A stretch of DNA of 64,000 nt from Actinomycetota bacterium. GTDB taxonomy: Bacteria; Actinomycetota; CADDZG01; JAHWKV01; JAOPZY01. The translations under genes and the position numbers were made by a program. Shown piece by piece: positions 22,354 through 46,829 of this stretch; the first letter of the stretch is position 1, and the number at the start of each line of letters is the position of its first letter. The notes below the pieces were generated by a model. The model did no database searches, was not told the origin of the DNA, and saw nothing but the letters and a program-made list of their open reading frames with translations. The DNA lies in NCBI GenBank assembly GCA_025963875.1, contig JAOPZY010000260.1, positions 583 to 64,582 on the forward strand, given 5' to 3'.

Positions 22354-22539
22354 ATGACGAAGAGGGTCGAACAGCGCTGTCATCGCTGTGGGCGCACCGC
22401 TGGAACGCTCAAGGTCTACCGGGATCCGTTTGGTGAGGAGACTGCGCCCGGGCGGTGGCCAACCCTCACCATGCATTCGGACTGCTTCCTTGCCTACCTC
22501 GGCGAACGCCGGATCGTGTTGTCGACCGCCGGCCGGTAA
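22354..22539 (+). CDS. Small hypothetical protein of about 61 aa with a CxxC motif
   Basis: A GGAGAG RBS precedes the ATG. Translation MTKRVEQRCHRCGRTAG...HSDC. Convergent with the MazF gene. Confidence 0.25.
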   Translation: MTKRVEQRCHRCGRTAGTLKVYRDPFGEETAPGRWPTLTMHSDCFLAYLGERRIVLSTAGR

Positions 22540-22558
22540 GGATCGACCAGCAGGACTG

Positions 22559-22888
22559 TCACGTTATCCGGCAGGGGAGGGGCACGCCGAGGGCAAGGTG
22601 CATGGCTCGTTCCACCTCGTGCATGCGTGCCGATCCGAGGGTGGTGATGAGGGAACTCAGCATGCTCCGGCGGATGGTGGCCAGGCTGTCCAGATTCACC
22701 ACGCACGGCCGCGCCATTCCGTCGGCAGGCCCGAGCGTCACCTCGGCGTCCAAACCACGCATGTTGGTGGTCACTTCAGCGACCGTCACGCGATCTCGCC
22801 AATCCCCATGAGCGTCCCAGGACAGGAGAAGAACGGGGTGACGTTGACCGGGGGGCTGCTCGGCCCACCAGATCTCAGCTCGCCGCAC
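22559..22888 (-). CDS. mazF: Type II toxin, PemK/MazF family endoribonuclease
   Basis: RRAEIWWAEQPPGQRHPVLLLS...RVTVAEVTTN matches the MazF/PemK pattern. A GTG start is inferred, overlapping the antitoxin end. Confidence 0.7.
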   Translation of the reverse strand: MRRAEIWWAEQPPGQRHPVLLLSWDAHGDWRDRVTVAEVTTNMRGLDAEVTLGPADGMARPCVVNLDSLATIRRSMLSSLITTLGSARMHEVERAMHLALGVPLPCRIT

Positions 22889-23171
22889 GCCGCTTGCGCT
22901 CAGGGATGGAGTCGGGCTCGCCCGTATCCCCGGCGAGGAGCTCAGCCGCTGCCATGTCTGCCCACTCCAACTCCCCGATCGTTTCGGGCTGTGCCTGATA
23001 AGCGGCCCGGTAGCGCTCCTCTCGACGCTCGTTCTCGAGCTGGCGCCACCCACGCCAGAGGAGGTCCGTCACCACCTCCGAGCGGTTGGCGCCCGCCTCC
23101 TGCCGCAGTCCCTCGATGTGGGCCATCAGTTCCGTCGGCACGCTGATCGTTACTTTCTCGACCTTTGGCAT
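22875..23171 (-). CDS. Ribbon-helix-helix (CopG-like) antitoxin partnered with MazF
   Basis: N-terminal RHH fold (KVTISVPTELMAHIEGLRQEAGANRSEVV). It lies immediately upstream of the mazF-like gene and overlaps it. Confidence 0.65.
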   Translation of the reverse strand: MPKVEKVTISVPTELMAHIEGLRQEAGANRSEVVTDLLWRGWRQLENERREERYRAAYQAQPETIGELEWADMAAAELLAGDTGEPDSIPERKRRAAS

Positions 23172-23227
23172 ACCGACAGCATACCAATCTTCCTACTCCC
23201 AGGGAGAGCGCCCGCTCCCCCGAGGCC

Positions 23228-23884
23228 TCAGCCGAGGCCGGGGACCAGGGGGCCCACCTGGTTCATTACGCTGACGAGGTTGGCTTTGCAGGGGTCGCCA
23301 ACCACGGGGCGGATGAAGAACGGGAGCTGTCCGACCATCTGGTTGAGTAGCTTGACCACGGCGGGATCCAGGCAGAGGTTCGCTATCACGGCCTGGACCT
23401 CCGAACCGCACATGTTTCGGCCCAGGAGGGCCTCAAGCTGGGTCTTGAGTGTCCCGACGCCCGAGGACAGTTCGGGGTGTTTGCTGGCCGTCTTGGCGAT
23501 CTCGCCGAGCAGCCAGTTGATCTTGGCGTCGTTCAACTGCTCCTTGGCGCGACACGTGACGGCGACGGCCGCCTGCCTCAGTGAGGAGACCGATTTGGCA
23601 ACGACCGCAACGGCTGCGGGGACGACTGGGGCCTTGGGCGTCACCTTTGGCGACGGAGCGATGGTCGACTTGATGGCGGAAAGCTTGGTGCTGGGTGGAA
23701 GCGCCGAGGCAGAGCCCGCCGCGGGCGATGGCAGGGCCGGGGTGGCGCTCGGGATCGCTACGGCGGCCGAAGCGCCAGCAATCGAGAGCGGCGGAGGGGG
23801 AGCGGCGCTGCCGGCTGCCACAAAGGCCACCGCTCCACCCCCGGTGGAGGCGGCGATGACAAGGGCCACCAGCTTGTGCTTCAT
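23228..23884 (-). CDS. Secreted Ala/Pro-rich protein with a Cys-containing C-terminal domain, function unknown
   Basis: Signal peptide MKHKLVALVIAASTGGGAVAFVAA, an A/P/S-rich linker, and a roughly 110-aa C-terminal domain with 4 Cys. Confidence 0.45.
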   Translation of the reverse strand: MKHKLVALVIAASTGGGAVAFVAAGSAAPPPPLSIAGASAAVAIPSATPALPSPAAGSASALPPSTKLSAIKSTIAPSPKVTPKAPVVPAAVAVVAKSVSSLRQAAVAVTCRAKEQLNDAKINWLLGEIAKTASKHPELSSGVGTLKTQLEALLGRNMCGSEVQAVIANLCLDPAVVKLLNQMVGQLPFFIRPVVGDPCKANLVSVMNQVGPLVPGLG

Positions 23885-24091
23885 CAAGGCTGCGAGGTGA
23901 TGGCTCATGGAGGTGGTGGTCCTTTCGCGCGGGAAACATGCCCTGTCACTGGGGCATCGGCACTGCCGGGTTGCAGGGTTACGGTTCGCAGCCCTCGCGG
24001 GACGATTTGGTCCGAACGGACGAGGGTGGGCGCACGGCCGCGCTATGCCGGCTCTCCCCCGAATGGGCGACGGGGGAGCTCGACGGCAGGC

Positions 24092-25453
24092 TCATCCAGT
24101 GAACGTGGCCCCTGGCTCCGCCCAGCCTGCGACCCCCTCGTAAGCGCAGCCCAGCCGGAGCACCGTCTCCTCGTCGCGGGCGATGAGCTGCAGTCCGATC
24201 GGCAAGCCTCCCGCCCCCAGCCCGCAGGGCACCGAGAGGGCGGCCAGGCCCGCCACGTTGACCGGCCCGGGGATCCGCGTCAGCTTCATCACGATGGGCC
24301 GGCGTGGGCTTCCCTCCGAGCGCTGCGCCGCCTCCTCGTGCGTGGGCGCAATGCACGGCACCGTCGGGGTCACCAACACGTCGGCGTCGTCGAAGACCGA
24401 ACCGAGCCGGGCGGCGAGCCTCCGGCACTCGGCCCGTGCCGCCTCGACGGCTCCGGGGGTGAGGTTCTTCTCTGCGTGCAGGAGGTAACCGCGGGTCTCT
24501 TCCGTGTAGTCGCCGGCCCGGTCGGGCCACCAGCCTCGGGAACGGTGCACCTCCAGCGCCTCCCACATGAGAACGGTGGAACGGGGGGCATCGAAGCTGG
24601 TGAAGGGTGGCACGTCGGCGTCGCGAAGGCTGGCGGTCATCCCCCGGAACGCATCGACGGCGCCGGCGTAGGCTGACGCCACCTCCGGCTCCAACTCGGG
24701 TAGGGCGTCCAGCGGAGCGCAGACCACCCGCAGATCGCCGGCGCCGCCGAGCTCCAGCGGGGCACCCGACAGCACCTCCCACAGCAGGGCGACGTCCTCG
24801 ACGGTCCTGGCCATCGGCCCCACCACATCGAAGCTCGGCGCCAGCGGGATCACCCCCTCCGTGCGAACTTGCTGCTGCCGCGGCTTGAGGCCGGCGACCC
24901 CACAGAGGGCCGCAGGGATCCGGATCGAGCCGGCCGTGTCGGTGCCCAGGGCACCGAGGCAGTGCCCGGCCGCAAGGGCCGCCGCCGAGCCGCCGCTGGA
25001 GCCGCCAGGGATCCGGCCAAGGTCCCAGGGATTGGACGTGCCCGGAGTGACTGCGCCGTAGGCGAACTCGTGCGTCGCCGTCTTGCCGAGGATCACGGCG
25101 CCAGCAGCGCGTAGCCGGGAGACGACCGGGGCGTCGGCATCGGCAATCGTGCCCGCGAGTACCCGGGAGCCCCCTGTCGTCGTCATCCCAGCGACGTCGA
25201 TCATGTCCTTGATCCCGATGGGGATCCCCCACAGGGGCAGCTCGGTGCGCTCGGCGGCCTCCATCCCCTCCACGCCGCGCCGGGCGAGATCCGGATCGCA
25301 GGTCCTCCACGCGCGCACCGCCGCCTCCGACTGCTCGATGCGGTCGCGGCAGGCGGCCAGCACCTCGATGGGGGAGGCCGCTCCCGACCTCAGAGCGTTC
25401 CGCGCGCCGGCGAGGGTGGCGAAGCGTGGCAACGATGACTGGGCGATAGCAAC
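24092..25453 (-). CDS. Amidase (amidase-signature family)
   Basis: AS signature GGSSGGSAAALAAG and GKTATHEFAYG, catalytic Ser/Lys context. The start is inferred at GTG (VAIAQSS), so the divergent greA promoter region is not overlapped. Confidence 0.8.
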   Translation of the reverse strand, partial: VAIAQSSLPRFATLAGARNALRSGAASPIEVLAACRDRIEQSEAAVRAWRTCDPDLARRGVEGMEAAERTELPLWGIPIGIKDMIDVAGMTTTGGSRVLAGTIADADAPVVSRLRAAGAVILGKTATHEFAYGAVTPGTSNPWDLGRIPGGSSGGSAAALAAGHCLGALGTDTAGSIRIPAALCGVAGLKPRQQQVRTEGVIPLAPSFDVVGPMARTVEDVALLWEVLSGAPLELGGAGDLRVVCAPLDALPELEPEVASAYAGAVDAFRGMTASLRDADVPPFTSFDAPRSTVLMWEALEVHRSRGWWPDRAGDYTEETRGYLLHAEKNLTPGAVEAARAECRRLAARLGSVFDDADVLVTPTVPCIAPTHEEAAQRSEGSPRRPIVMKLTRIPGPVNVAGLAALSVPCGLGAGGLPIGLQLIARDEETVLRLGCAYEGVAGWAEPGATFTG

Positions 25454-25553
25454 ACATTGAAACTGATCTCTCGCACACGTTGCATCGGTGCCCTCGCGGC
25501 GCGTCTCGAAGGGGCGTACCGAAGGCGACGGTTGTCGTGTAAAAATGAGGCGC

Positions 25554-26039
25554 ATGAACGAATCTCAGGATGCGATGGTTGTTAGTTCCGAGACGCTTGA
25601 TCGCTGGGAGCAGGAGCTGAAGGAGCTCACCAGCGATGGCCGGGCCGCAATGAGCGAACGCCTGCAGCGAGCTCGCGAGTTCGGCGATATCCGGGAGAAC
25701 GCCGACTACGACGCCGCACGGGACGAGCAGGCAATGATGGAGGCGCGGATCCGCCACCTCCAGCACATGATCAAGAACGCCATCGTCCAGACGTCGCCGG
25801 CCACCACCGACCTTGCGGGCCCCGGCATCATCGTGACCATCCTCGAGGCCGGCGAGGCCGACGTCGAGGAGTACCTGCTCGCTTCGACGGCGGAGGAGAA
25901 GGTGGCCGGCGTCAGGACCATCACCACGTCGTCGCCGCTCGGTAGCGCCCTGCTCGGCAAGAAGGTCGGGCAGACCGCGGAGGTGGCAGCCCCGGGGGGC
26001 AGGTTCTCCGTCGAAGTCAAGGCGCTACGACCACGCTGA
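25554..26039 (+). CDS. greA: Transcription elongation factor GreA
   Basis: N-terminal coiled coil with the acidic tip (GDIRENADYDAARDEQ) and a C-terminal FKBP-like domain. Confidence 0.85.
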   Translation: MNESQDAMVVSSETLDRWEQELKELTSDGRAAMSERLQRAREFGDIRENADYDAARDEQAMMEARIRHLQHMIKNAIVQTSPATTDLAGPGIIVTILEAGEADVEEYLLASTAEEKVAGVRTITTSSPLGSALLGKKVGQTAEVAAPGGRFSVEVKALRPR

Positions 26040-26674
26040 ACCACTCCACGTTCGTCAAGATCTGCGGCATCACGCGCCTGGGGGACGCCCGGGTCGCTGT
26101 CCGCGCGGGAGCCAACGCCGTCGGCTTCGTCTTCGCCCCCAGCCCCCGCCGGATCGTGCCATCGCGGGCGAAGGAGATCGCCCGCCACCTCCACCCGAGC
26201 GTGACGAGCATCGGCGTCTTTGTGGATGCCACCGTCGACCAGGTGCTGCGCATCGTCGGAGAGGTCGGCCTCGGCGGCGTGCAACTCCAGGGGGCCGAGC
26301 CGCCCGAGATGATCGAGGCGCTCCGCCGGGCACGCCCCGGCCTCTTCATCTCGAAGGTCGTCCGCATGTTCGATGCTCGATCCCTGGCCGCCACGGCGAC
26401 CAGCCCCGCCGACGCCGTCATGGTCGATCCCAAGGATCCCAACGATCCCGGCGCCCGCAGTTCGCCGATCCCCGTCGACTGGCTGGCCGGCGCCCACCAC
26501 GGACACCTCATCGTGGCGGGGGGCCTGACGCCGTCGACCGTCGGCGATGTCGTGCGCATCCTGCATCCGTGGGGCGTGGACGTGTCGGGTGGGGTCGAGG
26601 CGTCGCCGGGGCGAAAGGACGTCCGGCTGGTGCGGGAGTTCGTGGCGGAGGTTCGAGCCGCCGAGCACGGGTGA
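26036..26674 (+). CDS. trpF: Phosphoribosylanthranilate isomerase TrpF
   Basis: FVKICGIT N-terminal motif and GGL..VDVSGGVE C-terminal motifs. The start codon is uncertain, with no in-frame ATG near the conserved N-terminus. It may be CTG near 26036, overlapping the greA stop. Confidence 0.65.
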   Translation: MNHSTFVKICGITRLGDARVAVRAGANAVGFVFAPSPRRIVPSRAKEIARHLHPSVTSIGVFVDATVDQVLRIVGEVGLGGVQLQGAEPPEMIEALRRARPGLFISKVVRMFDARSLAATATSPADAVMVDPKDPNDPGARSSPIPVDWLAGAHHGHLIVAGGLTPSTVGDVVRILHPWGVDVSGGVEASPGRKDVRLVREFVAEVRAAEHG

Positions 26675-26685
26675 GACTCCAGGTG

Positions 26686-27141
26686 ATGGATCGCTCAAAG
26701 TTCGAAGACTTGCGTCCGCAGATCCAGCGGGGCGTGCAGTGGGCGGCGGGGCGGAGCCTCAACCACGCCGCGGTCGCGGCCCTGCGGCTCGGGCTGCCGT
26801 TCCCGCCCTACCCGGCGGACGGGGCGCTGGTGATGGAGACCATCGGTCGCAAGACGGGCAGGCGCCGCCTCGTGCCGATGGGCTGCCTCAAGGACGTAGA
26901 CCGGCTGCTGGTGGTGGCCGAGCACGGGCGCCGCTCCGACTGGCTGCGCAACGCCCTGGCCGCGCCGGGCTCGAAGGTGCGGCTGTGGCTGGCCGGCCGG
27001 CCCTACACCGGTCGGGTGCATGTCCTGGACGACGAGGACCCCGAGGAGCTGCTCGCCCGGATCGGCAACAAGGTGCACACCGCCACGATCCGGACCATGG
27101 CCTACGAGCCGTGTGTCGTGGCCATCGACCTGGGGGCCTGA
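26686..27141 (+). CDS. Deazaflavin (F420)-dependent nitroreductase-family protein (DUF385/PNPOx-like)
   Basis: Family pattern TIGRKTGRRR...VVAEHG..SDWLRN...V.L. Confidence 0.65.
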   Translation: MDRSKFEDLRPQIQRGVQWAAGRSLNHAAVAALRLGLPFPPYPADGALVMETIGRKTGRRRLVPMGCLKDVDRLLVVAEHGRRSDWLRNALAAPGSKVRLWLAGRPYTGRVHVLDDEDPEELLARIGNKVHTATIRTMAYEPCVVAIDLGA

Positions 27142-27162
27142 GGGGGCCTCATCTCGCATCAT

Positions 27163-27175
27163 GATGCTATGATGC
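27163..27175 (+). promoter_or_regulatory. Extended -10 (TGcTATGAT) in 13-mer GATGCTATGATGC ending 4 nt before the antitoxin ATG; predicted leaderless promoter, overlaps 12-bp palindrome GCATCATGATGC
   Basis: The -10 hexamer TATGAT ends 6 nt before ATG 27180 and there is no SD. An identical 13-mer with identical spacing occurs at 34614-34626. Confidence 0.45.
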
Positions 27176-27179
27176 GGTT

Positions 27180-27410
27180 ATGTCGAAAACGCGGACCACC
27201 CTCACCATCGACGAAGCGGTTCTTCGAGCCGTCAAGATCCGGGCGGCCCGCACCGGAAAGGGCGACAGCGAAGTGATTGAGGACGCTCTCCGACGGGAGC
27301 TTGGTCTGGATCTCCTCGACAAGCTCTGGAAGCGCGGTGACCTCGATGAGGGCCAGGCCATCGAGTTGGCCGTCGAAGCGCAACACGCAACGCGGCGCGC
27401 CAAGCGCTGA
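27180..27410 (+). CDS. Ribbon-helix-helix antitoxin (VapB/CopG-like)
   Basis: N-terminal RHH (TLTIDEAVLRAVKIRAARTGKGDSEVIEDALR). It is followed by the PIN toxin gene. Confidence 0.65.
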   Translation: MSKTRTTLTIDEAVLRAVKIRAARTGKGDSEVIEDALRRELGLDLLDKLWKRGDLDEGQAIELAVEAQHATRRAKR

Positions 27411-27438
27411 CCCGTGAACGCGTGGACGCGCGGCAAGA

Positions 27439-27885
27439 TTGGCACAATCTACGACCGCTATTGACGTCCGCGTGAAGGCAGTCCTCGATCCGAACGTCAT
27501 CATTTCCGCACTGGTCGCTCCAGCCGGCTCGCCCGCCAAGGTGTTGCGGGCTTGGGTGGAGGGCGCCTACGAACTTGTCGCCTCACCCCTTCTGCTCGCG
27601 GAGGTGGAGAGGGCGCTCGGCTACCCAAAGCTCCGAAAGGGAATCAACGCGGCGGAGGCCTTGGCGCTGATCGATCTACTCAGGCGGCAGGCAGAGTTGA
27701 TGGAGGATCCGGCAGCCCCTCCGACGTTTCGGTCGCCCGACCCCGGTGACGACTATCTGATTGCCTTGGCCGAGTCGGCCCACGCAGTCCTCGTCTCCGG
27801 CGACGGCCATCTCCTGGGGATGGGACCAGGCGCCTCCGTCTCTACGCCGGGGGCGTTCCTTGCGCTGATCGCCTCCGGAACATGA
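27439..27885 (+). CDS. PIN-domain toxin (VapC-like ribonuclease)
   Basis: LDPNVIISALV N-terminal acidic motif and D..SGDGHLL C-terminal PIN motif. GTG at 27472 is an alternative start. Confidence 0.65.
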   Translation: MAQSTTAIDVRVKAVLDPNVIISALVAPAGSPAKVLRAWVEGAYELVASPLLLAEVERALGYPKLRKGINAAEALALIDLLRRQAELMEDPAAPPTFRSPDPGDDYLIALAESAHAVLVSGDGHLLGMGPGASVSTPGAFLALIASGT

Positions 27886-27919
27886 GCCGAGCCTTCGCCG
27901 GGACGTGTCCGCCGCCGGC

Positions 27920-28228
27920 TCAGCAGCCGGTTGCCGCGGCGAGGGTTCGGCAGGCTCCCGCCATCCTGGCCGGCGACAGCGCTGCGATCCGGCGCCGAAG
28001 CGCGGTCCTGGGCAGCGTCTGGATGTTGTCGAAGTTCACGACGCAGTCGGTGGGAACGCCGTCCCCCTGGGCCGAAAGCTCCAACTCTGAGACCAGGCCA
28101 CGGCGGGTTCGGGTAAGGGCGGCGACGACCACATTGGCGATTCGCTCCGCCACCGGGTCGCGGGTGAGGACCAGCACGGGCCGGTCGCCCCCGGGCGTCG
28201 CGGCGAACCACACCTCACCTCTGAGCAT
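27920..28228 (-). CDS. mazF: Type II toxin, MazF/PemK family
   Basis: GEVWFAATPGGDRPVLVLTRDPVAERIANVVVAALTRTRRGLVSEL matches mycobacterial-type MazF. Confidence 0.7.
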   Translation of the reverse strand: MLRGEVWFAATPGGDRPVLVLTRDPVAERIANVVVAALTRTRRGLVSELELSAQGDGVPTDCVVNFDNIQTLPRTALRRRIAALSPARMAGACRTLAAATGC

Positions 28229-28466
28229 CCGACCAGTCCGACCAGTCTTCGGCCGGCCCCCAATCGGCGATAGCCGCGAGCGACAGCTCGCCCTGGTCGA
28301 GCGGGAGCCGCTCCCAGATTTCAGACTCGACTTCGCTGGCCAGGCGGAGGAGGTGACGGCGGACAGCGTCGCGCAGGATCTCCGAGCGATCCACGGCCAG
28401 CCGGTCCGCCCATGCCTGCAATTCCGTGGCTACGGCCTCGTCAACCCGGAAGCTCAGCATTGTCAT
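28215..28466 (-). CDS. mazE: MazE-like antitoxin (RHH/CopG family)
   Basis: Short protein directly upstream of mazF and overlapping it, with an acidic C-terminus. A TATCAT -10 ends 6 nt before its ATG. Confidence 0.6.
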   Translation of the reverse strand: MTMLSFRVDEAVATELQAWADRLAVDRSEILRDAVRRHLLRLASEVESEIWERLPLDQGELSLAAIADWGPAEDWSDWSDAQR

Positions 28467-28560
28467 ACAGGGATGATATCATGTATGACGCCGGTCCGCA
28501 GTAGGGAATCCGGCCTTCTACCAGGCAAAATGGGTCTCGCATCCCCACGGCCGCTGGGCG

Positions 28561-28625
28561 GGGTTGGGGTAGATCGGGGAAACCCAACCTGCTAGACTGG
28601 GATGAGGTTAGGGTAACCTAACCTT
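28561..28625. promoter_or_regulatory. Two palindromic elements upstream of sufB: GGGTTGGG-N14-CCCAACC and AGGTTAGGGTAACCTAACCT
   Basis: Seen directly. They lie about 90-150 nt upstream of the sufB start and are candidate operators for a SufR-like or other regulator. Confidence 0.3.
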
Positions 28626-28714
28626 GGTCGGGACCGGCCCGAAACTGAGCCGGAGGCTGAGGGCGGCCGGACCCGATTGACCGTAAATGTCGCCCCAGAG
28701 GAGGGTTCTTCGCT

Positions 28715-30145
28715 ATGGCTACACAAGCACAAGACCCGATCCTTGCTGAGAACGAGGCAGTTCGTCAGCTGAAGGAGGGCTACAAGTACGGATGGAGCGA
28801 CGCCACCAACTACGTCGAGAAGCCCCAGCGCGGCCTGAGCCACGACGTCATCGACCAGATTTCCGATCGCAAGGGCGAGCCGGACTGGATGCGGGCGTAC
28901 CGGCACAAGGCGCTCAACTACTTCCTGGCTCGGCCGATGCCGAAGTGGGGCGCCGATCTCACGGGCATCGACTTCGACAACATCTACTACTACATCAAGC
29001 CGACCAACCTGGTGAAGAACTGGGAGGACATGCCTGCCGAGATCCGGGACACCTGGGACAAGCTCGGGATCCCGGAGGCGGAGAAGAGTTACCTGGGCGG
29101 CGTCAGCGCCCAGTACGAGAGCGAGGTCGTCTACCACTCGACGAAGAAGGAGCTGGAGGACCTCGGCGTCATCTTCTGCGACATGGACACGGCGCTGCGT
29201 GAGCACGAGGACATCGTCAAGGAGTACTTCGGCACGATCATCCCCGCCAACGACAACAAGTTCGCCGCCCTCAACTCGGCGGTGTGGTCGGGTGGCTCCT
29301 TCATCTACGTGCCGAAGGGCGTGTCGGTGGAGATCCCGCTCCAGGCCTACTTCCGGATCAACCAGGAGAACATGGGCCAGTTCGAGCGCACGATGATCAT
29401 CGTCGACGAGGACTCGTGGGTGCACTATGTCGAGGGATGCTCGGCACCGGTCTACTCCAGCGACTCCCTGCACTCTGCGGTGGTCGAGATCATCGTCAAG
29501 CCACGGGCGCGGTGCCGCTACACCACCATCCAGAACTGGTCGAACAACGTCTACAACCTGGTCACCAAGCGGGCCGTGGCCTACGACCACGCCACGATGG
29601 AGTGGGTCGACGGCAACCTCGGGTCCAAGGTCACGATGAAGTACCCGGCCGTGTGGCTGATGGGCGAAGGCGCCAAGGGCGAGATCCTGTCGGTGGCCTA
29701 CGCCGGGAACGGCCAGCACCAGGACGCCGGCGGCAAGGTCGTCCACGCCGCCCCCAACACCCAGTCGACCATCATCTCCAAGTCGATCTCGAAGGACGGG
29801 GGCCGGGCCGGGTACCGCGGGCTCGTGCGCGTCGAGGACGGCGCGACGAAGGCGAAGTCCAACGTCCGCTGCGACGCCCTGATCCTTGACGAGGCGTCGC
29901 GCTCCGACACCTATCCCTACATCGAGATCGAGGAGGAGACGGCCTCCATCGGCCACGAGGCCACGGTGTCGCGCATCGGCGACGAGCAGCTCTTTTACCT
30001 GCGGAGCCGGGGCATCGACGAGGCCGAGGCCATGAGCCTGATCGTCCGGGGCTTCATCGAGCCGATCACCAAGGAGCTGCCGCTGGAGTACGCGGTCGAG
30101 CTCAACCGGCTGATCCAGCTCCAGATGGAGGGCTCTGTCGGCTAG
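28715..30145 (+). CDS. sufB: Fe-S cluster assembly protein SufB
   Basis: Full-length SufB, highly conserved. Confidence 0.95.
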
Positions 30146-30172
30146 GCCCGAGGCCACCGAGGAGCACGAGAC

Positions 30173-31396
30173 ATGGGGTTTGACAAAGAGCACGTCGAGA
30201 ATCTGAGCCGCGCCTTGGATGAGCCTTCCTGGCTCACCGAGCGCCGCTTGGAGGCCTGGGGCTACTTCGAGAAGCTGGAGCTGCCCAGGGAAAAGGACGA
30301 GCCGTGGCGCTACACCGATCTCCGGCGCCTCGGCTTTGATCTCGACGCCTTCTCGCCGCTGGAGCCCAACCCCCACGACGCTGGGCTGGCGCTCGAGCGT
30401 GACCCCAAGCTCGAGGAGCGCGGCGTGGTGCTCCTGCCGCTCTACAACGCCATCCAGACCCGTCCCGAGCTTGTCCAGCGTTACCTGCTCAGCCAGGGCA
30501 ACCCGGGCCAGGACATCTTCACGGCGCTGCACACCGCCCTCTTCTCCGGCGGCACCTTCCTCTACGTGCCCCGGGGCGTGGACGTGGACATCCCGGTCGA
30601 GGCCACCCGCACCCTGTCGCAGGGTGGCGTGGGGATCTTCCCGCACACCCTCGTGGTAGTGGAGGAGGGGTCCTCCGTTGTCTTCATCGACCGGTACCGC
30701 TCCGACAACCTCACCCAGCCGAGCCTGTCCGATGCCGGCGTCGAGATCGTCGCCGGCGCGGGCTCCAGCGTCACCTTCGTCGCCATCCAGGAGTACGGGC
30801 GGGGGGTCTGGCACTTCGGCACGCAGCGTGCTCTCCTCGGCAGGGATGCGTCGTTGCAGAGCCTGGTCGTGACCCTCGGGGCCAGCTTCTCCCGGGCGCA
30901 GGTCGAGACGACCATCGCCGGCGAGCACGGCGACGTCCAGATGCTCGGCGTCTACTTCGCCGAGGCCGACCAGCACTTCGACATGCGCACGCTGCAGGAC
31001 CACGCGGCCCCCCGCAGCACCTCGGACCTGCTCTACAAGGGGGCGTTGAAGGACCACTCGCACACCGTGTACTCGGGCCTCATCCGGGTGCAGCGCAACG
31101 CCGAGAAGACCGATGCCTACCAGGCCAACCGCAACCTGGTGCTGTCGGACCATGCGAAGGCCGACTCCAAGCCCGAGCTCGAGATCCTGAACAACGACGT
31201 CCGCTGCACCCACGGGTCGACCGTCGGCCAGGTGGACGACGAGCAGCTCTTCTACCTCGAGTCCCGGGGCATCTCCCATGACGACGCGCAGCGCCTCATC
31301 GTCGAGGGGTTCTTCGAGGACGTCATCAACCGCGTGCGGGTCGAGGCGGTTCGCAACGTGCTCCACGACGCCATTGCACGGAAGCTGGCGGGCTGA
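30173..31396 (+). CDS. sufD: Fe-S cluster assembly protein SufD
   Basis: SufB paralog at the SufD position between sufB and sufC. Confidence 0.9.
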   Translation: MGFDKEHVENLSRALDEPSWLTERRLEAWGYFEKLELPREKDEPWRYTDLRRLGFDLDAFSPLEPNPHDAGLALERDPKLEERGVVLLPLYNAIQTRPELVQRYLLSQGNPGQDIFTALHTALFSGGTFLYVPRGVDVDIPVEATRTLSQGGVGIFPHTLVVVEEGSSVVFIDRYRSDNLTQPSLSDAGVEIVAGAGSSVTFVAIQEYGRGVWHFGTQRALLGRDASLQSLVVTLGASFSRAQVETTIAGEHGDVQMLGVYFAEADQHFDMRTLQDHAAPRSTSDLLYKGALKDHSHTVYSGLIRVQRNAEKTDAYQANRNLVLSDHAKADSKPELEILNNDVRCTHGSTVGQVDDEQLFYLESRGISHDDAQRLIVEGFFEDVINRVRVEAVRNVLHDAIARKLAG

Positions 31397-31400
31397 GGCC

Positions 31401-31754
31401 ATGAGCCCCATGAGCTCATTGGGGAGCGACGACTGGCAGCTCGTGGCCCACGTTTTCGACGTGAAGCCCGGGCAGGTCATCAAGGTTGTGGTGGGGAAGG
31501 ACCCGGTCTGCCTCGGCAACGTCGACGGCGAGTTCCTGGCGATCTACGACATCTGCAGCCACGAGTACGTCGAGCTGCACGAGGGCTGGCTGGAGGGCGA
31601 CGAGGTGGAGTGCCCCCAGCACGGGTCGAAGTTCTCCATGCGTACCGGGGCCGTACGGGGACTGCCGGCCACCAAGCCCGTGCCCGCGTACGAGACCAAG
31701 GTCGAGGGCGAACACGTCTACGTCCGGGGGCCTGTCCCCGTTTCTTCTTCCTGA
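31401..31754 (+). CDS. Rieske (2Fe-2S) domain protein of the actinobacterial suf operon
   Basis: CxH...CxxH boxes (CSHEYVELHEG ... CPQHGSKF). Confidence 0.8.
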   Translation: MSPMSSLGSDDWQLVAHVFDVKPGQVIKVVVGKDPVCLGNVDGEFLAIYDICSHEYVELHEGWLEGDEVECPQHGSKFSMRTGAVRGLPATKPVPAYETKVEGEHVYVRGPVPVSSS

Positions 31755-31768
31755 AGGGGTGATGAGTA

Positions 31769-32563
31769 ATGGCTGAGCCGATCCTGGTGGTCGAGGACCT
31801 CCACGCGACGGTCGAGGGCAAGGAGATCCTGCGGGGGGTTGACCTCAAGATCCTGCCCGGCGAGATCCACGCCATCATGGGCCCGAACGGGTCCGGAAAG
31901 TCCACGCTCGCCAACGTCCTCATGGGCAAGCCCGGCTACGAGATCGCCCAGGGCCGCGTCGTCTACAAGGGCGAGGACCTGAGCGGCCTGGCACCCGAGG
32001 AGCGGGCCCGCAAGGGCATCTTCCTGGCATTCCAGAACCCCCTCGAGATCCCCGGCGTGTCGGTCGTCAACTTCCTGCGGACCGCCTACAACGCCAGCCG
32101 GCCCGACAAAACCTTGGGGGCAATGGAATTCCGTAAGTACCTGCAGACCAAGATGGACATGCTCGGGGTCGGCAGCGAGCTCATCAACCGCTACGTCAAC
32201 CAGGGGTTCTCCGGCGGCGAGCGCAAGCGGTCCGAAGTGCTGCAGATGGCGGTGCTCGACCCGGAGCTGGCGGTCCTCGACGAGACCGACACCGGGCTCG
32301 ACATCGACGCCCTGCGGGAGGTCGCCGCCGGCGTCATGAAGGTCCACAACGACAGGCGCGGCATCCTCATCATCACCCACTACCAGCGGATCCTGAACTA
32401 CATCGAGCCCACGTTCATCCACGTCCTTCTCGGCGGCCGCATCGTGCGGGAGGGCGGCAAGGAGCTCGCGCTCGAGCTGGAGGCGAAGGGCTACGAGCAG
32501 TTCCGGGCCGACGCCGGGCTTCCCGACTCCGCCCCGCTGACCGACGAGGCGCCCGCCAAGTAG
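31769..32563 (+). CDS. sufC: Fe-S cluster assembly ATPase SufC
   Basis: Walker A GPNGSGKST, signature FSGGERKR, Walker B LDETDTGLD. Confidence 0.95.
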   Translation: MAEPILVVEDLHATVEGKEILRGVDLKILPGEIHAIMGPNGSGKSTLANVLMGKPGYEIAQGRVVYKGEDLSGLAPEERARKGIFLAFQNPLEIPGVSVVNFLRTAYNASRPDKTLGAMEFRKYLQTKMDMLGVGSELINRYVNQGFSGGERKRSEVLQMAVLDPELAVLDETDTGLDIDALREVAAGVMKVHNDRRGILIITHYQRILNYIEPTFIHVLLGGRIVREGGKELALELEAKGYEQFRADAGLPDSAPLTDEAPAK

Positions 32564-32581
32564 GTGGACAAGGGCCAACGC

Positions 32582-32620
32582 AAAACCCCCGCCGCAGAGC
32601 ACCGCGGCGGGGGTTTTGCT
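32582..32620. terminator. Rho-independent, probably bidirectional terminator between convergent sufC and the phosphodiesterase gene
   Basis: AAAA-CCCCCGCCGC-agagcacc-GCGGCGGGGG-TTTT: a perfect 10-bp GC stem flanked by A and T tracts. Confidence 0.7.
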
Positions 32621-32633
32621 TTCTCCTGATTGG

Positions 32634-34349
32634 TCAGCCTTCGAAGCCAGGCAGGACCTGGGTGTGCTCGATGCGGACGGCGTCGAGCTTGTACGGGTTC
32701 AGTCCGAGGGCCGCGAGGACCGTCGGCGCGACCTGGGCGGTGTCCACCCTCTCGTCGACGACGTTGCCGCCGCCGTTGCCGTGCCCGCCGGTGAGGCGAG
32801 CGCCGTTGACGACGATCAGGGCGACGTGGGTATCGTCCGTCGCGAAGCCGCCGTGCTCGGCCACCTTGGCGCCACTGCCGGTGTAGATGGTTCCGGGGAC
32901 AGGCTGGACGATGAGGTCCGGTGTCCTGGGGTCGACCAGCGGGCTGTTGAAGCGATCGGCCAGGGCCTTGCCGGACAGGACGTACTGGACCTTGGCGGTG
33001 TTGGCCCCCGCCTTGTCCGCCAGCAGGGCGTTGACGGCCGTCGTCACCTGCGACTGGTTCTTCAGCCACATCAGGGAGATGTCGTCGTCGGTGGTCTGGG
33101 CGATGGCGACGCCGGCGTTGGTGACCACGTTTGCCTCGGCGTGACCGACCTTGGCCAGCTTCGACGGGTCGATCGGGGACTGCCCGTGCTTGGCCGTGAC
33201 GATGATGTCGGTCGAGCTGAGCTTGTTCCTGGCCTTCAGCTCCGCCACCATCTTGCCGAGCGCTCCATCGACGAAGCTCACGGCGCCCGAGAGCTGTGGC
33301 GTGAACTGAAGGGTGGTGGGCTCGTAGCCGCCGGGGAAGTAGTTCGGGTCGCAGCCCGGCGCGTTGTTGCTGCGCACGCACGACAGCTGCGGGTCGACGA
33401 GCTTCTGCCCGACACTCACCGACTGGAAGTTCATGCCGAAGATTGCGGGCGTGCCCACCTGCTTCGTGCCTGCCGAGTTGAGCCCGTCGATCTGGTTCAG
33501 GATCGCGTCGACCTTGATCTCGTCATAGGCCGAGGTGTCGCCGACCTTGTCCGTGATGAAGGGGCCGTTGTTGTCTCCCGTCGGGTTGGGGAGCGGGAAG
33601 GTGACCGTGTTGCCGCGGGTGTCGACCAGGGAGGGCGGGATGATGTCGGCGTTGATCTCGGTCATGAACTTGTCGTCGACCGCGTTGGCCGTGCCGTGCC
33701 CGCTCACCATCACGTTGGCCGAGGGGTGCTTGTCCGCCCATGCCGTGCGGAGACCGGCCTGGTGGGCGACGCTGAACATCGAGTTCGACCGGAGGTAGTC
33801 GTTCGGGGCCACGGGCACACACTTGCCGCCGACCAGCGCGCGCGGGAGCTGGGCCGGGTCGATGGACTCGTTGAGGATGGTCCGGCTCCCGATCCCGCCG
33901 TTGGCGGTGCTCGGGGCGTTGATGTCGAGGTTCTCGAAATACTGCATCTCGGCCCCGGGAGGCCCGGAGCAGTCCTGGACCGTCCCGGTCGGCAGCTGGG
34001 CCGGAGGTGTGAACATCGTCCGGTCGTAGCTGTCGTCGTAGTAGACGCCGCTCAGCTTGGGTGTGGCGCCCGTCGTGAGTGCCACCACGCCCGGCGATGA
34101 GTCGGAAGGCGTCGATGTCGACACGTTCGAGTACGAGGTGCCGTTGGCCATCAAGCTCGCAATGGTGGGACACAGGTTTGCCGCCATGCATTTGGTCACA
34201 TCCGAGGCGTGCAGGCCATCCACGCTGATCAAGAGCACGTGGTGAGCCGGTTCGGCGTTCGCAATGGCGGTGGCGCCCGCCACCGCCGTTGCGGTCAGCG
34301 ACATCACGCTCAGGCCGACAAGCGCCGAGCGGGGCAGTCGGTGTCTCAT
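32634..34349 (-). CDS. Secreted type I phosphodiesterase / nucleotide pyrophosphatase (alkaline-phosphatase superfamily, NPP-like)
   Basis: Signal peptide, then HHVLLISVDGLHASDV metal-ligand motif typical of NPP/AlkP-core enzymes. About 570 aa mature. The start is set at MRHRLPRSALVGLSV. Confidence 0.7.
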   Translation of the reverse strand: MRHRLPRSALVGLSVMSLTATAVAGATAIANAEPAHHVLLISVDGLHASDVTKCMAANLCPTIASLMANGTSYSNVSTSTPSDSSPGVVALTTGATPKLSGVYYDDSYDRTMFTPPAQLPTGTVQDCSGPPGAEMQYFENLDINAPSTANGGIGSRTILNESIDPAQLPRALVGGKCVPVAPNDYLRSNSMFSVAHQAGLRTAWADKHPSANVMVSGHGTANAVDDKFMTEINADIIPPSLVDTRGNTVTFPLPNPTGDNNGPFITDKVGDTSAYDEIKVDAILNQIDGLNSAGTKQVGTPAIFGMNFQSVSVGQKLVDPQLSCVRSNNAPGCDPNYFPGGYEPTTLQFTPQLSGAVSFVDGALGKMVAELKARNKLSSTDIIVTAKHGQSPIDPSKLAKVGHAEANVVTNAGVAIAQTTDDDISLMWLKNQSQVTTAVNALLADKAGANTAKVQYVLSGKALADRFNSPLVDPRTPDLIVQPVPGTIYTGSGAKVAEHGGFATDDTHVALIVVNGARLTGGHGNGGGNVVDERVDTAQVAPTVLAALGLNPYKLDAVRIEHTQVLPGFEG

Positions 34350-34613
34350 GGTTCCTCCTTCGGTCAGGGGCCGCGATGCCGGCCACGAACGGAGAGGAGT
34401 GGGCTCGGATGCCACCCCCCGATCGGCGCAGCCGGACCGGGGGTTCATGGGACAGGCGCGCAACCTCCCACCCCCGAGCTCAAGTACGCCTTGAGACTCG
34501 AACGTAGCAACGACCCTTGAACGAATCGTGAACGGCGCGTGACGGGAGGCCGTCATTCTCCTGAGAGTCTGCGCGCAGCGCTCCAGGCGAGACAGCAAGG
34601 TGCACCGGCCGAC

Positions 34614-34626
34614 GATGCTATGATGC
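34614..34626 (+). promoter_or_regulatory. Second copy of GATGCTATGATGC with the -10 TATGAT ending 6 nt before the vapB ATG; predicted leaderless promoter
   Basis: Identical 13-mer and identical spacing to the site at 27163-27175. Confidence 0.45.
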
Positions 34627-34630
34627 TCCC

Positions 34631-34885
34631 ATGCGTACCACCGTGACGCTGGACCCCGACGTCGAGGCGCTGATCAAGTCGGCTATGGCCGAGCAGCACC
34701 TGACCTTCAAGGATGCGGTGAACCAGGCGATCAGGGCCGGACTGTCTCCACGGCGGAGAGAGCCATTCCGACAGCGGACCTTCGACCTCGGCTTCCGTCC
34801 GGATATCCCCTACGACAAGGCGCTGCAGCTGGCGGCGGCCGTCGAGGGCGAGGAGATCGTGCGCAAGCTGTCGTTGGGAACGTAA
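34631..34885 (+). CDS. vapB: VapB-type antitoxin
   Basis: Small protein (MRTTVTLDPDVEALIKSAMAEQHLTFKDAVNQAIR) directly upstream of vapC. Confidence 0.65.
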   Translation: MRTTVTLDPDVEALIKSAMAEQHLTFKDAVNQAIRAGLSPRRREPFRQRTFDLGFRPDIPYDKALQLAAAVEGEEIVRKLSLGT

Positions 34886-34896
34886 GTCGCCTGTCG

Positions 34897-35322
34897 ATGG
34901 TCATTGTCGATGCCAATGTGCTGCTCTACGCCGTCAACGGGGCTTCGCCCCACCACCTGGCAGCCAAGGGATGGGTCGAGGGGGCCCTCGGCGGCGACGA
35001 GCCGGTGGGTTTCGCCTGGGTCGTGCTCCTCGCGTTCCTGCGCCTGGTCACGCTCCCGGCCGTGTTCCCGAAGCCTCTCGACGTCGACGTGGCGCTCGAA
35101 GTCGTAGAAGCCTGGCTGTCTGCTCGGGCTGCCACAGTCGTGCAGCCCACTGCTCGGCATGCCGCAGTCCTCGGAGGCTTCCTCAGAGCGTCGGGCACAG
35201 CGGGCAACCTCGTCACGGATGCACATCTGGCAACGCTCGCCGTCGAATACGGGGCTCGCCTCTGTACCTTTGACCGAGACTTCGCCCGCTTCGCCGGTGT
35301 GCGCTCCTTCGCGCCTGCCTGA
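34897..35322 (+). CDS. vapC: VapC PIN-domain toxin (ribonuclease)
   Basis: MVIVDANVLLYAV...LVTDAHLATLAVEYGARLCTFDRDF gives the canonical PIN acidic residues. Confidence 0.8.
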   Translation: MVIVDANVLLYAVNGASPHHLAAKGWVEGALGGDEPVGFAWVVLLAFLRLVTLPAVFPKPLDVDVALEVVEAWLSARAATVVQPTARHAAVLGGFLRASGTAGNLVTDAHLATLAVEYGARLCTFDRDFARFAGVRSFAPA

Positions 35323-35356
35323 CGTTCCGGGCCGGAACGCCTGGTAAGTCTGGGCA

Positions 35357-35399
35357 GTTTCCGTCAAAAAGTGTCCCCACGGCCCTTTTTGACGGAAAC
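35357..35399. terminator. Perfect 15-bp inverted repeat (GTTTCCGTCAAAAAG / CTTTTTGACGGAAAC, 13-nt loop) between convergent vapC and the CMD gene
   Basis: Seen directly. The 3-prime arm abuts the CMD gene stop codon. Confidence 0.5.
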
Positions 35400-35968
35400 T
35401 ATGAAGCGCGGCTCCCGAGACCTCGCTTGGCGAAAACCTGCGCCGCGGCAGCCATGCCGTTCAGCGCCGCCGGGAACCCTGCGAAGACCACCATGAGCAG
35501 GATGGTCTCGACCACGTCGGCGGGGCTCCCTCCGGCGTCGAGCAGGGCGTGGATGCGCAGGAGCAGCTCCTGGTGGCCGGGTGTGCCGAGGGCGGTGAGC
35601 CGTGCCACCGCAACGATCTCCCGGTCCTGGGCGGTGAGGGCACCCGTCGTTTGGCCGGACCGGGCTTCGTTGATCTCCGGCTCCATGGCGCCGGCGTTGC
35701 GGGCGCCCTGGGCGTGGAAGCGCAGTTGCGGGGTGGCATTGCCGAGAGCAGCGAGGGCCGCGACCGCAGCCAGCTCGCGCCGGCGCAGGCTCAGCCCCGG
35801 ACGGGCGTAGACGTCGCCGTAGGCGAACTCGACGAGGTAGCGCCCGAGGTCCGGCGCCACGCCGGCCAGGTCCTGCAGCACCTGCGGATCCTCTGCCGCC
35901 GCAACCTCCCGCAGGATCGCCACTCCGCGCTCGTAGCGGTCTTTATCCGGCGCCTTGAGGGGCGCCAT
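35399..35968 (-). CDS. Carboxymuconolactone decarboxylase (CMD) family protein
   Basis: About 189 aa matching the CMD/AhpD-like fold. The 501-aa track ORF is a fusion with antisense pstB noise. Confidence 0.65.
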   Translation of the reverse strand: MAPLKAPDKDRYERGVAILREVAAAEDPQVLQDLAGVAPDLGRYLVEFAYGDVYARPGLSLRRRELAAVAALAALGNATPQLRFHAQGARNAGAMEPEINEARSGQTTGALTAQDREIVAVARLTALGTPGHQELLLRIHALLDAGGSPADVVETILLMVVFAGFPAALNGMAAAAQVFAKRGLGSRAS

Positions 35969-41833: not shown

Positions 41834-43063
41834 ATGGATGCACGAGAGGTTCGCAAGGACTTTCCGATTCTGGACCAGGAGGTAAACGGCAAGCCCCTGT
41901 CCTACCTGGACAACGCCGCCACCTCGCAGAAGCCCCGCCAGGTCATCGATGAACTGAAGCGGTTCTTCGAGGAGGACAACGCCAATGTGCACCGCTCGGT
42001 GCACACCCTGGGGGAGCGCGCCACCGTGCTCTACGAGGGCGCCCGGGCCAAGGTCGCCGAGTTCATCGGGGCCCCCAGCCCTCGGGGCATCATCTTCACC
42101 AAGTCCGCCACCGAGGGCCTGAACCTGCTCGCCTACGCCTGGGCGAGGCACCGCCTGTCCGAGGGCGACGAGATCATCACCACCGAGATGGAGCACCACT
42201 CGAACATCGTGTCCTGGCAGCTCGCGTGCCGGGACACCGGCGCGACGCTCAGGGCGATCCCGGTCCGGGACGGGGCGACGCTCGACCTCGACGCCTACGA
42301 AAGGATGCTCTCCAACCGGACCCGCATCGTGACGGTGGGCCACGTGTCGAACGTCCTCGGCACGATCAACCCCATCGCCGACATCGCCGAGAAGGCCCAC
42401 GACGCCGGGGCGATCGTCGTCTGCGACGGAGCACAGGCGGCGCCGCACCTCCCCGTGGACGTGGGTGCCCTCGGCTGCGACTTCTACGTGGGCACCGGCC
42501 ACAAGATGTGCGCCCCGACCGGCATCGGCTTCCTCTGGGGCCGGGAGGCGCTCCTCGAGGACATGGAGCCCTTCCATGGCGGCGGCGACATGATCAGCGA
42601 CGTCTGGATCGACCACTCGACGTGGAACGAGATCCCGTACAAGTTCGAAGCGGGCACGCCACCGGTCGCCGATGCCATCGCGCTGGGGACTGCCATCGAC
42701 TACCTCAACGCCATCGGCATGAAGGCCATCCGGGAACACGAGATCGAGCTCACGCGGTACGCCCTGGAGCGTCTCCGGGAGGTGCCGGAGATCCAGATCT
42801 ACGGCCCCACCGACCCGGAGCTCAAGGGTGGCGTGGTGTCCTTCAATCTCGGTGACATCCATGCGCACGACGTGGGCACGATCGTCGACAGCTGGGGGGT
42901 CGCCATCCGGGCGGGCCACCATTGCTCGAAGCCGCTGATGCGTAAGCTTGGGATAGCGGCCTCGGCCAGAGCGTCGTTCTATCTGTACAACGTCGAAGAG
43001 GAGGTAGATCGGTTGGTTGAGGCACTGGGTGACGTGACGCGGCTGATGGGGGGTAGGTCATGA
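41834..43063 (+). CDS. sufS: Cysteine desulfurase SufS
   Basis: Class V aminotransferase with PLP-Lys context (TGHKMCAP) and the catalytic Cys loop (RAGHHCSKP). Confidence 0.9.
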   Translation: MDAREVRKDFPILDQEVNGKPLSYLDNAATSQKPRQVIDELKRFFEEDNANVHRSVHTLGERATVLYEGARAKVAEFIGAPSPRGIIFTKSATEGLNLLAYAWARHRLSEGDEIITTEMEHHSNIVSWQLACRDTGATLRAIPVRDGATLDLDAYERMLSNRTRIVTVGHVSNVLGTINPIADIAEKAHDAGAIVVCDGAQAAPHLPVDVGALGCDFYVGTGHKMCAPTGIGFLWGREALLEDMEPFHGGGDMISDVWIDHSTWNEIPYKFEAGTPPVADAIALGTAIDYLNAIGMKAIREHEIELTRYALERLREVPEIQIYGPTDPELKGGVVSFNLGDIHAHDVGTIVDSWGVAIRAGHHCSKPLMRKLGIAASARASFYLYNVEEEVDRLVEALGDVTRLMGGRS

Positions 43064-46701: not shown

Positions 46702-46829
46702 GGTCCGCCTCCTACCTAGGTTTCTGCTGGAAAGTTACTGAAAGTATTGTTATCGGCAGATTATGAGGATCTTTCACATGTTAAGATTGCTCAAAGATTT
46801 CGATACAGTGAATTTTTAGGAAAGTTGTC

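Follow-up and report, generated by a model that had tools for sequence, protein, structure and literature searches.

Why should two toxin-antitoxin (TA) modules whose proteins differ carry the same 13 nucleotides (nt) at the same distance from the start codon of the antitoxin gene? The question is raised by a window of 64,000 nt, the whole stretch of DNA analysed here, from an Actinomycetota bacterium (contig JAOPZY010000260.1; 68.5% GC). This window contains four type II TA pairs, confirmed by Pfam, two with PIN-domain toxins and two with PemK toxins. They are designated below by the first nucleotide of their antitoxin genes (27180 and 34631 for the PIN modules, 28466 and 23171 for the PemK modules). 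A sequence-only reading had noticed the identical 13-mer before two ribbon-helix-helix (RHH) antitoxin genes, and had predicted leaderless mRNAs and operators overlapping the -10 element at all four modules. The window and its homologous loci indicate that each of the four modules probably has an extended -10 promoter giving a leaderless mRNA and overlapping with the operator of the RHH antitoxin of the same module, and that the two PIN modules probably share a GATGC half-operator recognized through a common reading head.

The 13-mer GATGCTATGATGC occurs exactly, as had been stated, at 27163-27175 and 34614-34626; it is found nowhere else on either strand of the window, and each copy lies 4 nt before the antitoxin ATG. 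Its hexamer TATGAT (27168-27173 and 34619-34624) follows TGc and stands 6 nt before the ATG, which gives the extended -10 elements TGcTATGAT at 27165-27173 and 34616-34624. On the minus strand, the corresponding sequences are TGaTATCAT-ccctgt-ATG for 28466 (extended -10 from 28481 to 28473) and TGgTATGCT-gtcggt-ATG for 23171 (extended -10 from 23186 to 23178). At all four antitoxin ATGs, TGnTAnnnT ends exactly 6 nt upstream. Read from the sequence, none of the four starts has a Shine-Dalgarno (SD)-like motif between -17 and -5, and none of the four promoters has a TTGACA-like hexamer 16-18 nt upstream. The geometry announced by the earlier reading, an extended -10 ending 6 nt before the ATG with no SD, is therefore present at each locus. 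A sigma-70 consensus scan requiring a -35 box called none of the four TA promoters; its single match (minus strand, 27186-27158) mirrors the palindromic motif and corresponds to chance (one found for 0.8 expected).

The spacing of 6 nt stands out in the window as a whole. The pattern TANNNT-Nx-ATG is found seven times at x = 6 and 0, 1 and 0 times at x = 5, 7 and 8, respectively, the other spacers from 0 to 20 giving 0-5 sites each; six of the seven N6 sites open reading frames of at least 76 codons. The pattern TGNTANNNT has nine sites on both strands, four of them exactly 6 nt before an antitoxin ATG; among the remaining sites, one mirrors the palindromic 28466 site and four are intergenic and resemble ordinary promoters. 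A TANNNT-N6-start arrangement devoid of TGn also precedes, on the plus strand, the genes at 41834 (class-V aminotransferase, SufS-like), 59884 (HTH_20 regulator) and 62137 (DUF309, GTG start), which are probably leaderless too. Leaderless-type starts thus appear as a general habit of the organism and are not specific to TA genes. The TA genes are over-represented among the N6-geometry starts of the window, and they are the only ones there with an extended -10.

Chance agreement between two promoter hexamers, AT-richer than the GC-rich genome around them, can practically be discarded as the origin of the two copies. The TGnTAnnnT requirement already fixes five of the 13 positions, but base composition predicts 0.0005 copies of the 13-mer in 2 x 64 kb, and its conservation across species rules chance out (shuffled sequences give a mean of 0.68 matches when up to two mismatches are allowed). 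The earlier reading had also taken the shared 13-mer as a hint that the two VapBC-like modules were either co-regulated or recently duplicated. The copies are indeed identical over 13 nt and identically placed, but the identity ends with the 13-mer (flanks catGATGC...ggtt versus gacGATGC...tccc). The two antitoxins share 26% identity over 62 columns (hhalign probability 85%), and the toxins 27472 and 34897 barely align (BLASTP E=0.017), being essentially unalignable. This protein divergence excludes a recent duplication, and a gene conversion between the two loci is equally very improbable, since the same 13-mer stands at the same place in dozens of other species for each family. As the motif is found in front of both families in numerous other species and phyla, it is a family trait rather than a local copy.

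This conclusion derives from two sets of loci selected by protein homology and not by the motif. For the 27180 antitoxin (family 1; 4047 homologues), 80 species-representative genomes were fetched through its relatives, of which 78 loci were start-anchored. For the 34631 antitoxin (family 2), 80 metagenome contigs yielded 78 start-anchored loci with 69 distinct upstream regions. The sole Dormibacterota locus (L093) has no fixed start codon, its tblastn match beginning only at query residue 2, and was therefore not counted among the start-anchored loci. In both families the DNA of the different loci ceases to be related beyond about -35 to -45, and the stretch directly before the start is conserved. 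The family 1 consensus is gcatc...GCATCaTGATGCTATGATGC-N4-ATG (71-78 species). The family 2 consensus, gcATCatgACAgCa-N7-TGATGCTATGATGc-N4-ATG, includes the same 14-mer, and the family 2 loci display GCATCA and TGACAGCA elements upstream. Within the conserved stretch, GCATCnT precedes the 13-mer and its N4 spacer. The exact 13-mer is found at N4 in 35/78 loci of family 1 and in 20/69 distinct upstream regions of family 2, and these values rise to 62/78 and 35/69, respectively, with at most one mismatch. The spacer between TGnTAnnnT and the start measures 6 nt in 65/78 (family 1) and 59/78 (family 2) loci; most other loci have a spacer of 5 or 7 nt. When the hexamer is at N6, TGn is present in 66/68 and 61/62 homologues, respectively. 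The start codons are ATG (64) or GTG (13) in family 1 and always ATG (78/78) in family 2, and SD-like 4-mers were detected in two of the 78 family 1 loci and in none of the 78 family 2 loci. By comparative sequence, the leaderless geometry claimed earlier is thus supported in both families.

In the alignment of GCATCnTGATGCTATGATGC-N4-start, each position of the motif holds 1.2-1.8 bits, against nearly 0 bits for the N4 spacer and for the neighbouring third-codon positions, a difference from which selection on the DNA sequence follows. When up to one mismatch is allowed, the fetched loci (577 kb) and the window together contain 166 matches to the motif, and every one of them falls in these promoter regions, including inverted copies upstream in a subset of the family 2 loci. 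The family 1 cassette is distributed, according to the names given by the submitters, among Acidimicrobiia, Gaiellales, Thermoleophilia, Solirubrobacterales, Nitriliruptorales, Chloroflexota, Dormibacterota and metagenome-assembled genomes (MAGs) of Acidobacteria. The PIN genes located downstream in the homologous loci are clearly orthologous to the toxins of the window; the conserved unit is thus the whole cassette of promoter-operator, antitoxin and toxin. Some genomes harbour two family 1 modules, each with the motif (L066/L067; L057/L099). One locus (L052, 1476-1500) has three tandem GATGCTAT units before the start, so the number of repeats can vary. A scan of viral contigs with TGATGCTATGATGCNNNNATG gave nine matches, eight of them from one AT-rich phage group and none at an RHH gene; this is about the chance level by a rough estimate and is uninformative on TA loci.

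The repeat unit of the PIN modules is (T)GATGC, and two direct copies 8 bp apart form the hexamer (GATGC-TAT-GATGC, that is, the 13-mer). Counted from the first base of the -10 hexamer, the direct GATGC copies are at -5 and +3 in both families. The inverted copies GCATC(A) are at -12 (and -20) in family 1, immediately adjacent, and at -27 (and -19) in family 2, about 14 bp further out, where the upstream GCATC overlaps a TTGACA/ATGACA -35-like box located 16 nt from the hexamer. In the window, the region 27155-27176 contains an 8-nt inverted repeat, CGCATCAT/ATGATGCG, and the palindrome GCATCA-TGATGC at 27156-27167, which the earlier reading had not mentioned. Inverted groups of short repeats over a promoter are the arrangement expected for RHH dimers carried by a TA complex, by comparison with FitAB, VapBC, MetJ and the omega repressor.

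Could the conserved 14-20 bp represent only an unusually strong extended -10 promoter, in which GATGC optimises RNA polymerase binding or promoter escape at a leaderless start and no repressor site exists? TG and TA...T are the most conserved positions, and the extended -10 is the strongest promoter class in Mycobacterium tuberculosis (PMC3898074). However, the conservation includes positions not read by RNA polymerase, namely the GCATC of the spacer, the GC following the hexamer and the inner G and A of TATGAT, as well as the inverted upstream copies, which stand at family-specific distances. Moreover, where the reading strand is different, as in Mycobacterium homologues, the geometry is kept and GATGC is lost, and the other TGnTAnnnT promoters of the window (28590, 46779, 49085 and, on the minus strand, 34509) are devoid of GATGC. 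Autoregulation through repeats overlapping the promoter is the rule for RHH antitoxins. A promoter without a repressor site is thus an unlikely explanation. In the PIN modules and in the 28466 module, direct or inverted repeats overlap the -10 and the start and are conserved beyond the needs of a promoter, in agreement with the operators predicted by the earlier reading.

The inverted repeats adjoin the start codon at three loci, and a co-oriented gene lies 38 nt upstream of 27180. The modules might therefore be transcribed with a leader, from an upstream start or by read-through, and the inverted GCAUC/GAUGC would then form an RNA hairpin controlling translation near the start codon. This possibility appears improbable to us, because the sequence is conserved rather than the pairing and the distance between the arms differs between the families. 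The folding z-scores of the four start regions (-0.79, +0.67, -1.49 and -1.65) are unremarkable, and a search of 22500-35500 against Rfam gave only a sub-threshold miRNA match. In addition, 154 of the 156 homologous loci have no SD, and the fixed N6 spacing between the hexamer and the start has no rationale in a leadered mRNA.

The N-terminal strand of family 1 is KTRTTLTID, with the reading residues R5, T7 and T9; in alignment A1, the residues R5, T6, T7, L8 and T9 are invariant. Family 2 begins with MRTTVTLD, with the reading residues R2, T4 and T6; M1, R2, T3, T4, T6 and L7 are invariant in alignment A2. The protein 34631 matches no Pfam family above the cut-off. Its AlphaFold2 (AF2) model shows an extended N-terminus, helices at residues 9-22 and 26-37, and a C-terminal helix at a predicted local distance difference test (pLDDT) value of 74. 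Only RHH proteins are among the best Foldseek matches of this model, at weak E-values (0.088 at best); they include VapB26 and CopG-DNA complexes (root-mean-square deviation of 1.3 A over 37 columns). The topology of the model, the Foldseek matches and the profile match to family 1 together point to an RHH fold for family 2. In CopG, Arg4 and Thr6 contact the bases and Thr8 contacts the backbone (PMC8251345, citing PDB 1b01). Aligned by eye, the verified CopG sequence KKRLTITL presents the same R-x-T-x-T face as KTRTTLTI and MRTTVTL. The two families thus carry a CopG-like R-x-T-x-T strand and keep the same predicted half-operator across several phyla, which would account for the identical 13-mer at the two loci.

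Mycobacterium plasmids provide a comparison. In the homologues of family 1 (45-55% identity) the head is KKTTVYID, and TGtCAAAAT-N6-ATG is kept without GATGC repeats, while a homologue of family 2 (48% identity) keeps the head MRTTVTLD together with the upstream sequence TTGACAgca...TGATGCTATGCT-N6-ATG. These cases fit a link in which the motif would track the reading head. The other two antitoxins of the window have different strands (MTMLSFRVD and KVEKVTISV) and different repeats.

For these two PemK modules, the repeats quoted by the sequence-only reading are present. At 28466, the inverted repeat is GTCATACA-N12-TGTATGAC (28462-28469 and 28482-28489), of which the start-proximal arm contains the ATG. 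At 23171, GGTATGC is directly repeated with an 11-nt spacing (GCATACC at 23168-23174 and 23179-23185), and the second copy contains the ATG. The 28466 antitoxin has 2980 homologues. Seven of seven independent homologues (70-87% identity, unrelated genomic contexts) keep TANNNT-N6-ATG with variable inner bases of the hexamer (TATCAT, TAACAT, TACTCT, TAGCAT, TACGCT, TACAGT). The inverted repeat GTCATAC...GTATGAC is found in all seven, again with the start codon in the proximal arm. For two relatives (L003 and L005), the gene callers took the second ATG (81 amino acids, aa, versus 83); the conserved TANNNT-N6 favours the first ATG for this antitoxin. A tblastn search of plasmids with the 23171 antitoxin gave no match.

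The mechanism which we propose from these data is as follows. Each TA operon would be driven by a sigma-A-type extended -10 promoter of its own (TGnTAnnnT), for which no -35 is recognisable at these loci. Counted from the A of the antitoxin ATG, the hexamer occupies -12 to -7. With this position of the hexamer, transcription is predicted to start at the A of the ATG at 27180, 34631, 28466 and 23171. The resulting leaderless mRNA would be translated without an SD, as suggested by the geometry and by the mycobacterial precedent. The RHH antitoxin, alone or with the toxin, would bind the short repeats flanking and overlapping the -10 and the start and would repress its own operon, which is consistent with the conservation. 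In family 2, the upstream inverted copies merge with the TTGACA/ATGACA -35 box. The PemK modules would use the same promoter geometry with different repeats, matching their different N-terminal strands.

Several points weigh against this mechanism. The start of transcription, leaderless translation, binding and repression are each inferred from sequence. The gene upstream of 27180 ends 38 nt before it on the same strand, and leadered read-through transcripts may also exist. A very strong promoter could by itself explain part of the conservation. The upstream half-operator of family 2 is degenerate in the clade of the window, with GCACC for GCATC and a shift of GACAGCA by about 8 nt (in the window, a degenerate GACAGCA element at 34591-34597, upstream of the second 13-mer); the promoter-proximal 13-mer is intact in this clade. 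The link between motif and head is supported by two Mycobacterium lineages only. Finally, an exact-sequence look-up for 23171 gave only two relatives (L181, L182), both sequence-identical, and its promoter and repeats are read from the window sequence.

The identical half-operator and the same strand make cross-binding between the two PIN-module antitoxins plausible. A further step, for which we see a possible but rather doubtful case in the sequences, would be that the GATGC cassette constitutes a shared operator "code", read by the R-x-T-x-T strand in at least two distant VapB families, and that non-cognate antitoxins cross-repress. If so, the cassette would move along with the modules among Actinomycetota, Chloroflexota, Dormibacterota and Acidobacteriota. 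The TA modules of one genome, be they of both families, as in the window, or several paralogues, would form a single cross-repressed network with an output set by the summed antitoxin pool. The mechanism proposed above predicts that nearly all occurrences of TGATGCTATGATGC lie 4 nt before reading frames beginning with M(xKx)RTT[LV]T.

Table. Positions of the TA genes and of the predicted promoter and operator regions in the window
Feature	Position	Strand	Length (aa)	Evidence
Module 1 toxin, PemK/MazF-like	22559..22888	-		Pfam PemK_toxin E=8.7e-11, profile positions 1-107
Module 1 antitoxin, RHH-like	22875..23171	-	98	Pfam RHH_1 E=0.0027, below curated cut-off
Module 1 promoter region	23168..23186	-		window sequence only
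Module 2 promoter-operator (predicted) CGCATCATGATGCTATGATGCG	27155..27176	+		window sequence and family-wide consensus
Module 2 antitoxin, RHH (family 1)	27180..27410	+	76	Pfam RHH_1 E=1.3e-7, 31.7 bits (cut-off 20.5)
Module 2 toxin, PIN_3 domain	27472..27885	+	137	Pfam PIN_3 E=1.3e-14
Module 3 toxin, PemK/MazF-like	27920..28228	-	102	Pfam PemK_toxin E=4.4e-13
Module 3 antitoxin, RHH, N-terminus MTMLSFRVDE	28215..28466	-	83	Pfam RHH_1 E=1.3e-5, above cut-off
Module 3 promoter-operator (predicted)	28462..28489	-		window repeats and 7 homologues
Second 13-mer copy with extended -10	34614..34626	+		window sequence and family 2 consensus
34631 antitoxin, RHH-type VapB (family 2)	34631..34885	+	84	profile match to family 1, AF2 model, Foldseek
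VapC toxin, PIN domain	34897..35322	+	141	Pfam PIN E=1.7e-14; partner kept in homologous loci

The two VapBC-type pairs consist of an antitoxin gene followed by a co-oriented toxin gene, separated by 61 nt (27180/27472) and 11 nt (34631/34897), and the same pairs are found in the relatives. Both PIN toxin matches exceed the Pfam cut-offs. The toxin 27472 starts with GTG, in accordance with the gene calls of ten relatives (L001-L010), and its partner gene is kept in the homologous loci. Both PIN-module antitoxins show the layout of VapBC antitoxins, with an RHH-type N-terminal domain and a putative toxin-binding C-terminus. The family PSK_trans_fac (Rv0623-like) was considered for the protein 34631 and rejected (Pfam E=0.0075, below the cut-off).

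In the PemK modules, the toxin gene 28228 overlaps the 3' end of the 28466 antitoxin gene by 14 nt, and the toxin 22888 probably starts with a GTG overlapping the end of the 23171 antitoxin gene. The protein 23171 was assigned as an antitoxin on account of the adjoining PemK gene. Both antitoxins match RHH_1, 28466 above and 23171 below the cut-off; neither matches an AbrB-type family in Pfam, and neither has the AbrB/SpoVT fold of the canonical Escherichia coli MazE. They resemble the mycobacterial MazE proteins of RHH type, such as MazE-mt1 and MazE6 (among the Foldseek matches of the family 2 model). The sequence-only reading had named 28466 MazE: the partner toxin does belong to the PemK/MazF family, but the antitoxin is an RHH_1 protein (CopG family) and not an AbrB-type MazE, so this label has to be used with care.

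Antitoxin proteins identical to those of the window are also present in related MAGs and in soil metagenomes. The eight TA genes (22559-23171, 27180-28466 and 34631-35322) have a third-position GC content of 0.75-0.85, versus 0.85-0.95 for their neighbours, a decrease compatible with horizontally mobile or weakly expressed genes.

Other elements were observed around the modules. Just upstream of the vapB promoter, a tandem 10-mer (GGGGGCCTGA / GGGGGCCTCA, 27132-27151) spans the stop codon of an F420H2-dependent quinone reductase gene. Downstream of vapC (stop at 35322), before the end of a convergent carboxymuconolactone-decarboxylase-like gene is reached, the region 35356-35400 contains a perfect 16-nt inverted repeat, AGTTTCCGTCAAAAAG-N13-CTTTTTGACGGAAACT, AT-rich for this genome, possibly a terminator acting in both directions or a site for protein binding. 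A strong terminator-like hairpin (32580-32619; 16 pairs, 12 of them GC, then a T-run) directly follows sufC. At 28590-28623, about 90 nt upstream of sufB (28715), an extended -10-like sequence TGCTAGACT is followed by the near-palindrome GGTTAGGGTAACCTAACC; this region is a candidate promoter and regulator site of the suf operon. The TGNTANNNT-type sites at 46779 (+), 49085 (+) and 34509 (-), namely TGTTAAGAT, TGCTAACTT and TGCTACGTT, occupy positions resembling intergenic promoter regions, and suggest that extended -10 promoters are in general use in this organism.

Leaderless autoregulated TA operons are well known, and the main interpretation of the sequence-only reading is accordingly ordinary actinobacterial biology. 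The architecture being established, the present finding extends known biology and overturns nothing. The cassette itself, a promoter-operator common to two distant VapB families across phyla, was not found in the searchable literature, and a full-text search with the 13-mer and 12-mer cores gave no relevant paper. For TA biology, the observation concerns a promoter-operator cassette of about 20-45 bp, present in several phyla before two families with 26% identity and paired with a specific reading strand. This pairing leads to a prediction, open to direct test, on the specificity of the operator and on cross-talk among non-cognate modules. For annotation, the start codons of the four antitoxin genes are fixed, and the rule TGnTAnnnT-N6-ATG finds further leaderless genes. 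As predicted from the sequence, an uncultured soil actinobacterial lineage would use leaderless extended -10 promoters of mycobacterial style.

Among known systems, the MetJ met-boxes and the heptads of the omega repressor consist of units of 7-8 bp, direct and inverted, each bound by one RHH dimer. The 8-bp period of GATGC resembles these repeats, but the proteins, sequences and roles differ; Omega_Repress matches the protein 27180 weakly in Pfam (E=0.0011, below the cut-off). CopG (RepA) of pMV158 (PDB 1b01/1ea4) belongs to the RHH_1 family and shares the N-terminal R-x-T-x-T strand, according to the alignment by eye with the VapB heads. Unlike the VapB families, it is a plasmid copy-number repressor of 45 aa with neither a toxin partner nor a C-terminal toxin-binding tail. 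Several CopG dimers bind side by side on the operator, which overlaps the promoter. The sequence of this operator differs from that of the GATGC cassette, and the copG gene is not known as leaderless.

The nearest solved sequence relatives of the two families are Rv0298/MazE-mt10 (8u12, 8ypj) and VapB26 (5x3t) of M. tuberculosis, which are weak matches (E=9e-4 and E=0.2-0.6). Like the two families, they combine an RHH N-terminal domain with a C-terminal toxin-binding segment, but their reading strands differ (KEKISVTV and KTTVYL). In the VapBC/FitAB type, represented by FitAB of Neisseria and VapBC of Shigella and Salmonella, RHH or AbrB antitoxins form complexes with the PIN toxin, the antitoxin dimers bind inverted repeats overlapping the promoter and start, and the toxin:antitoxin ratio modulates repression (PMC3378870). 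Contrary to the modules of the window, the enteric VapBC operons have SD-led mRNAs and unrelated operator sequences.

Leaderless genes are abundant in Actinobacteria (PMC3160421). In M. tuberculosis, 73% of the mapped starts have TANNNT 7-12 bp upstream, without a -35 consensus, and promoters extended by TGn are the strongest class and account for only 7% of the TANNNT promoters (Cortes et al. 2013, PMC3898074). Of the 37 TA pairs for which that study gives a primary start, 32 are leaderless, TA genes being strongly enriched among leaderless genes. The passages of the study considered here report no promoter-operator sequence common to several TA families. The modules of the window resemble these operons by TANNNT at a fixed short distance, by the lack of a conserved -35 and of an SD, and by an antitoxin start predicted at the 5' end of the transcript. 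They differ in that the starts were mapped in M. tuberculosis and are predicted here, and in that TGn, found in that 7% of the TANNNT promoters, is present at four of the four TA promoters of the window.

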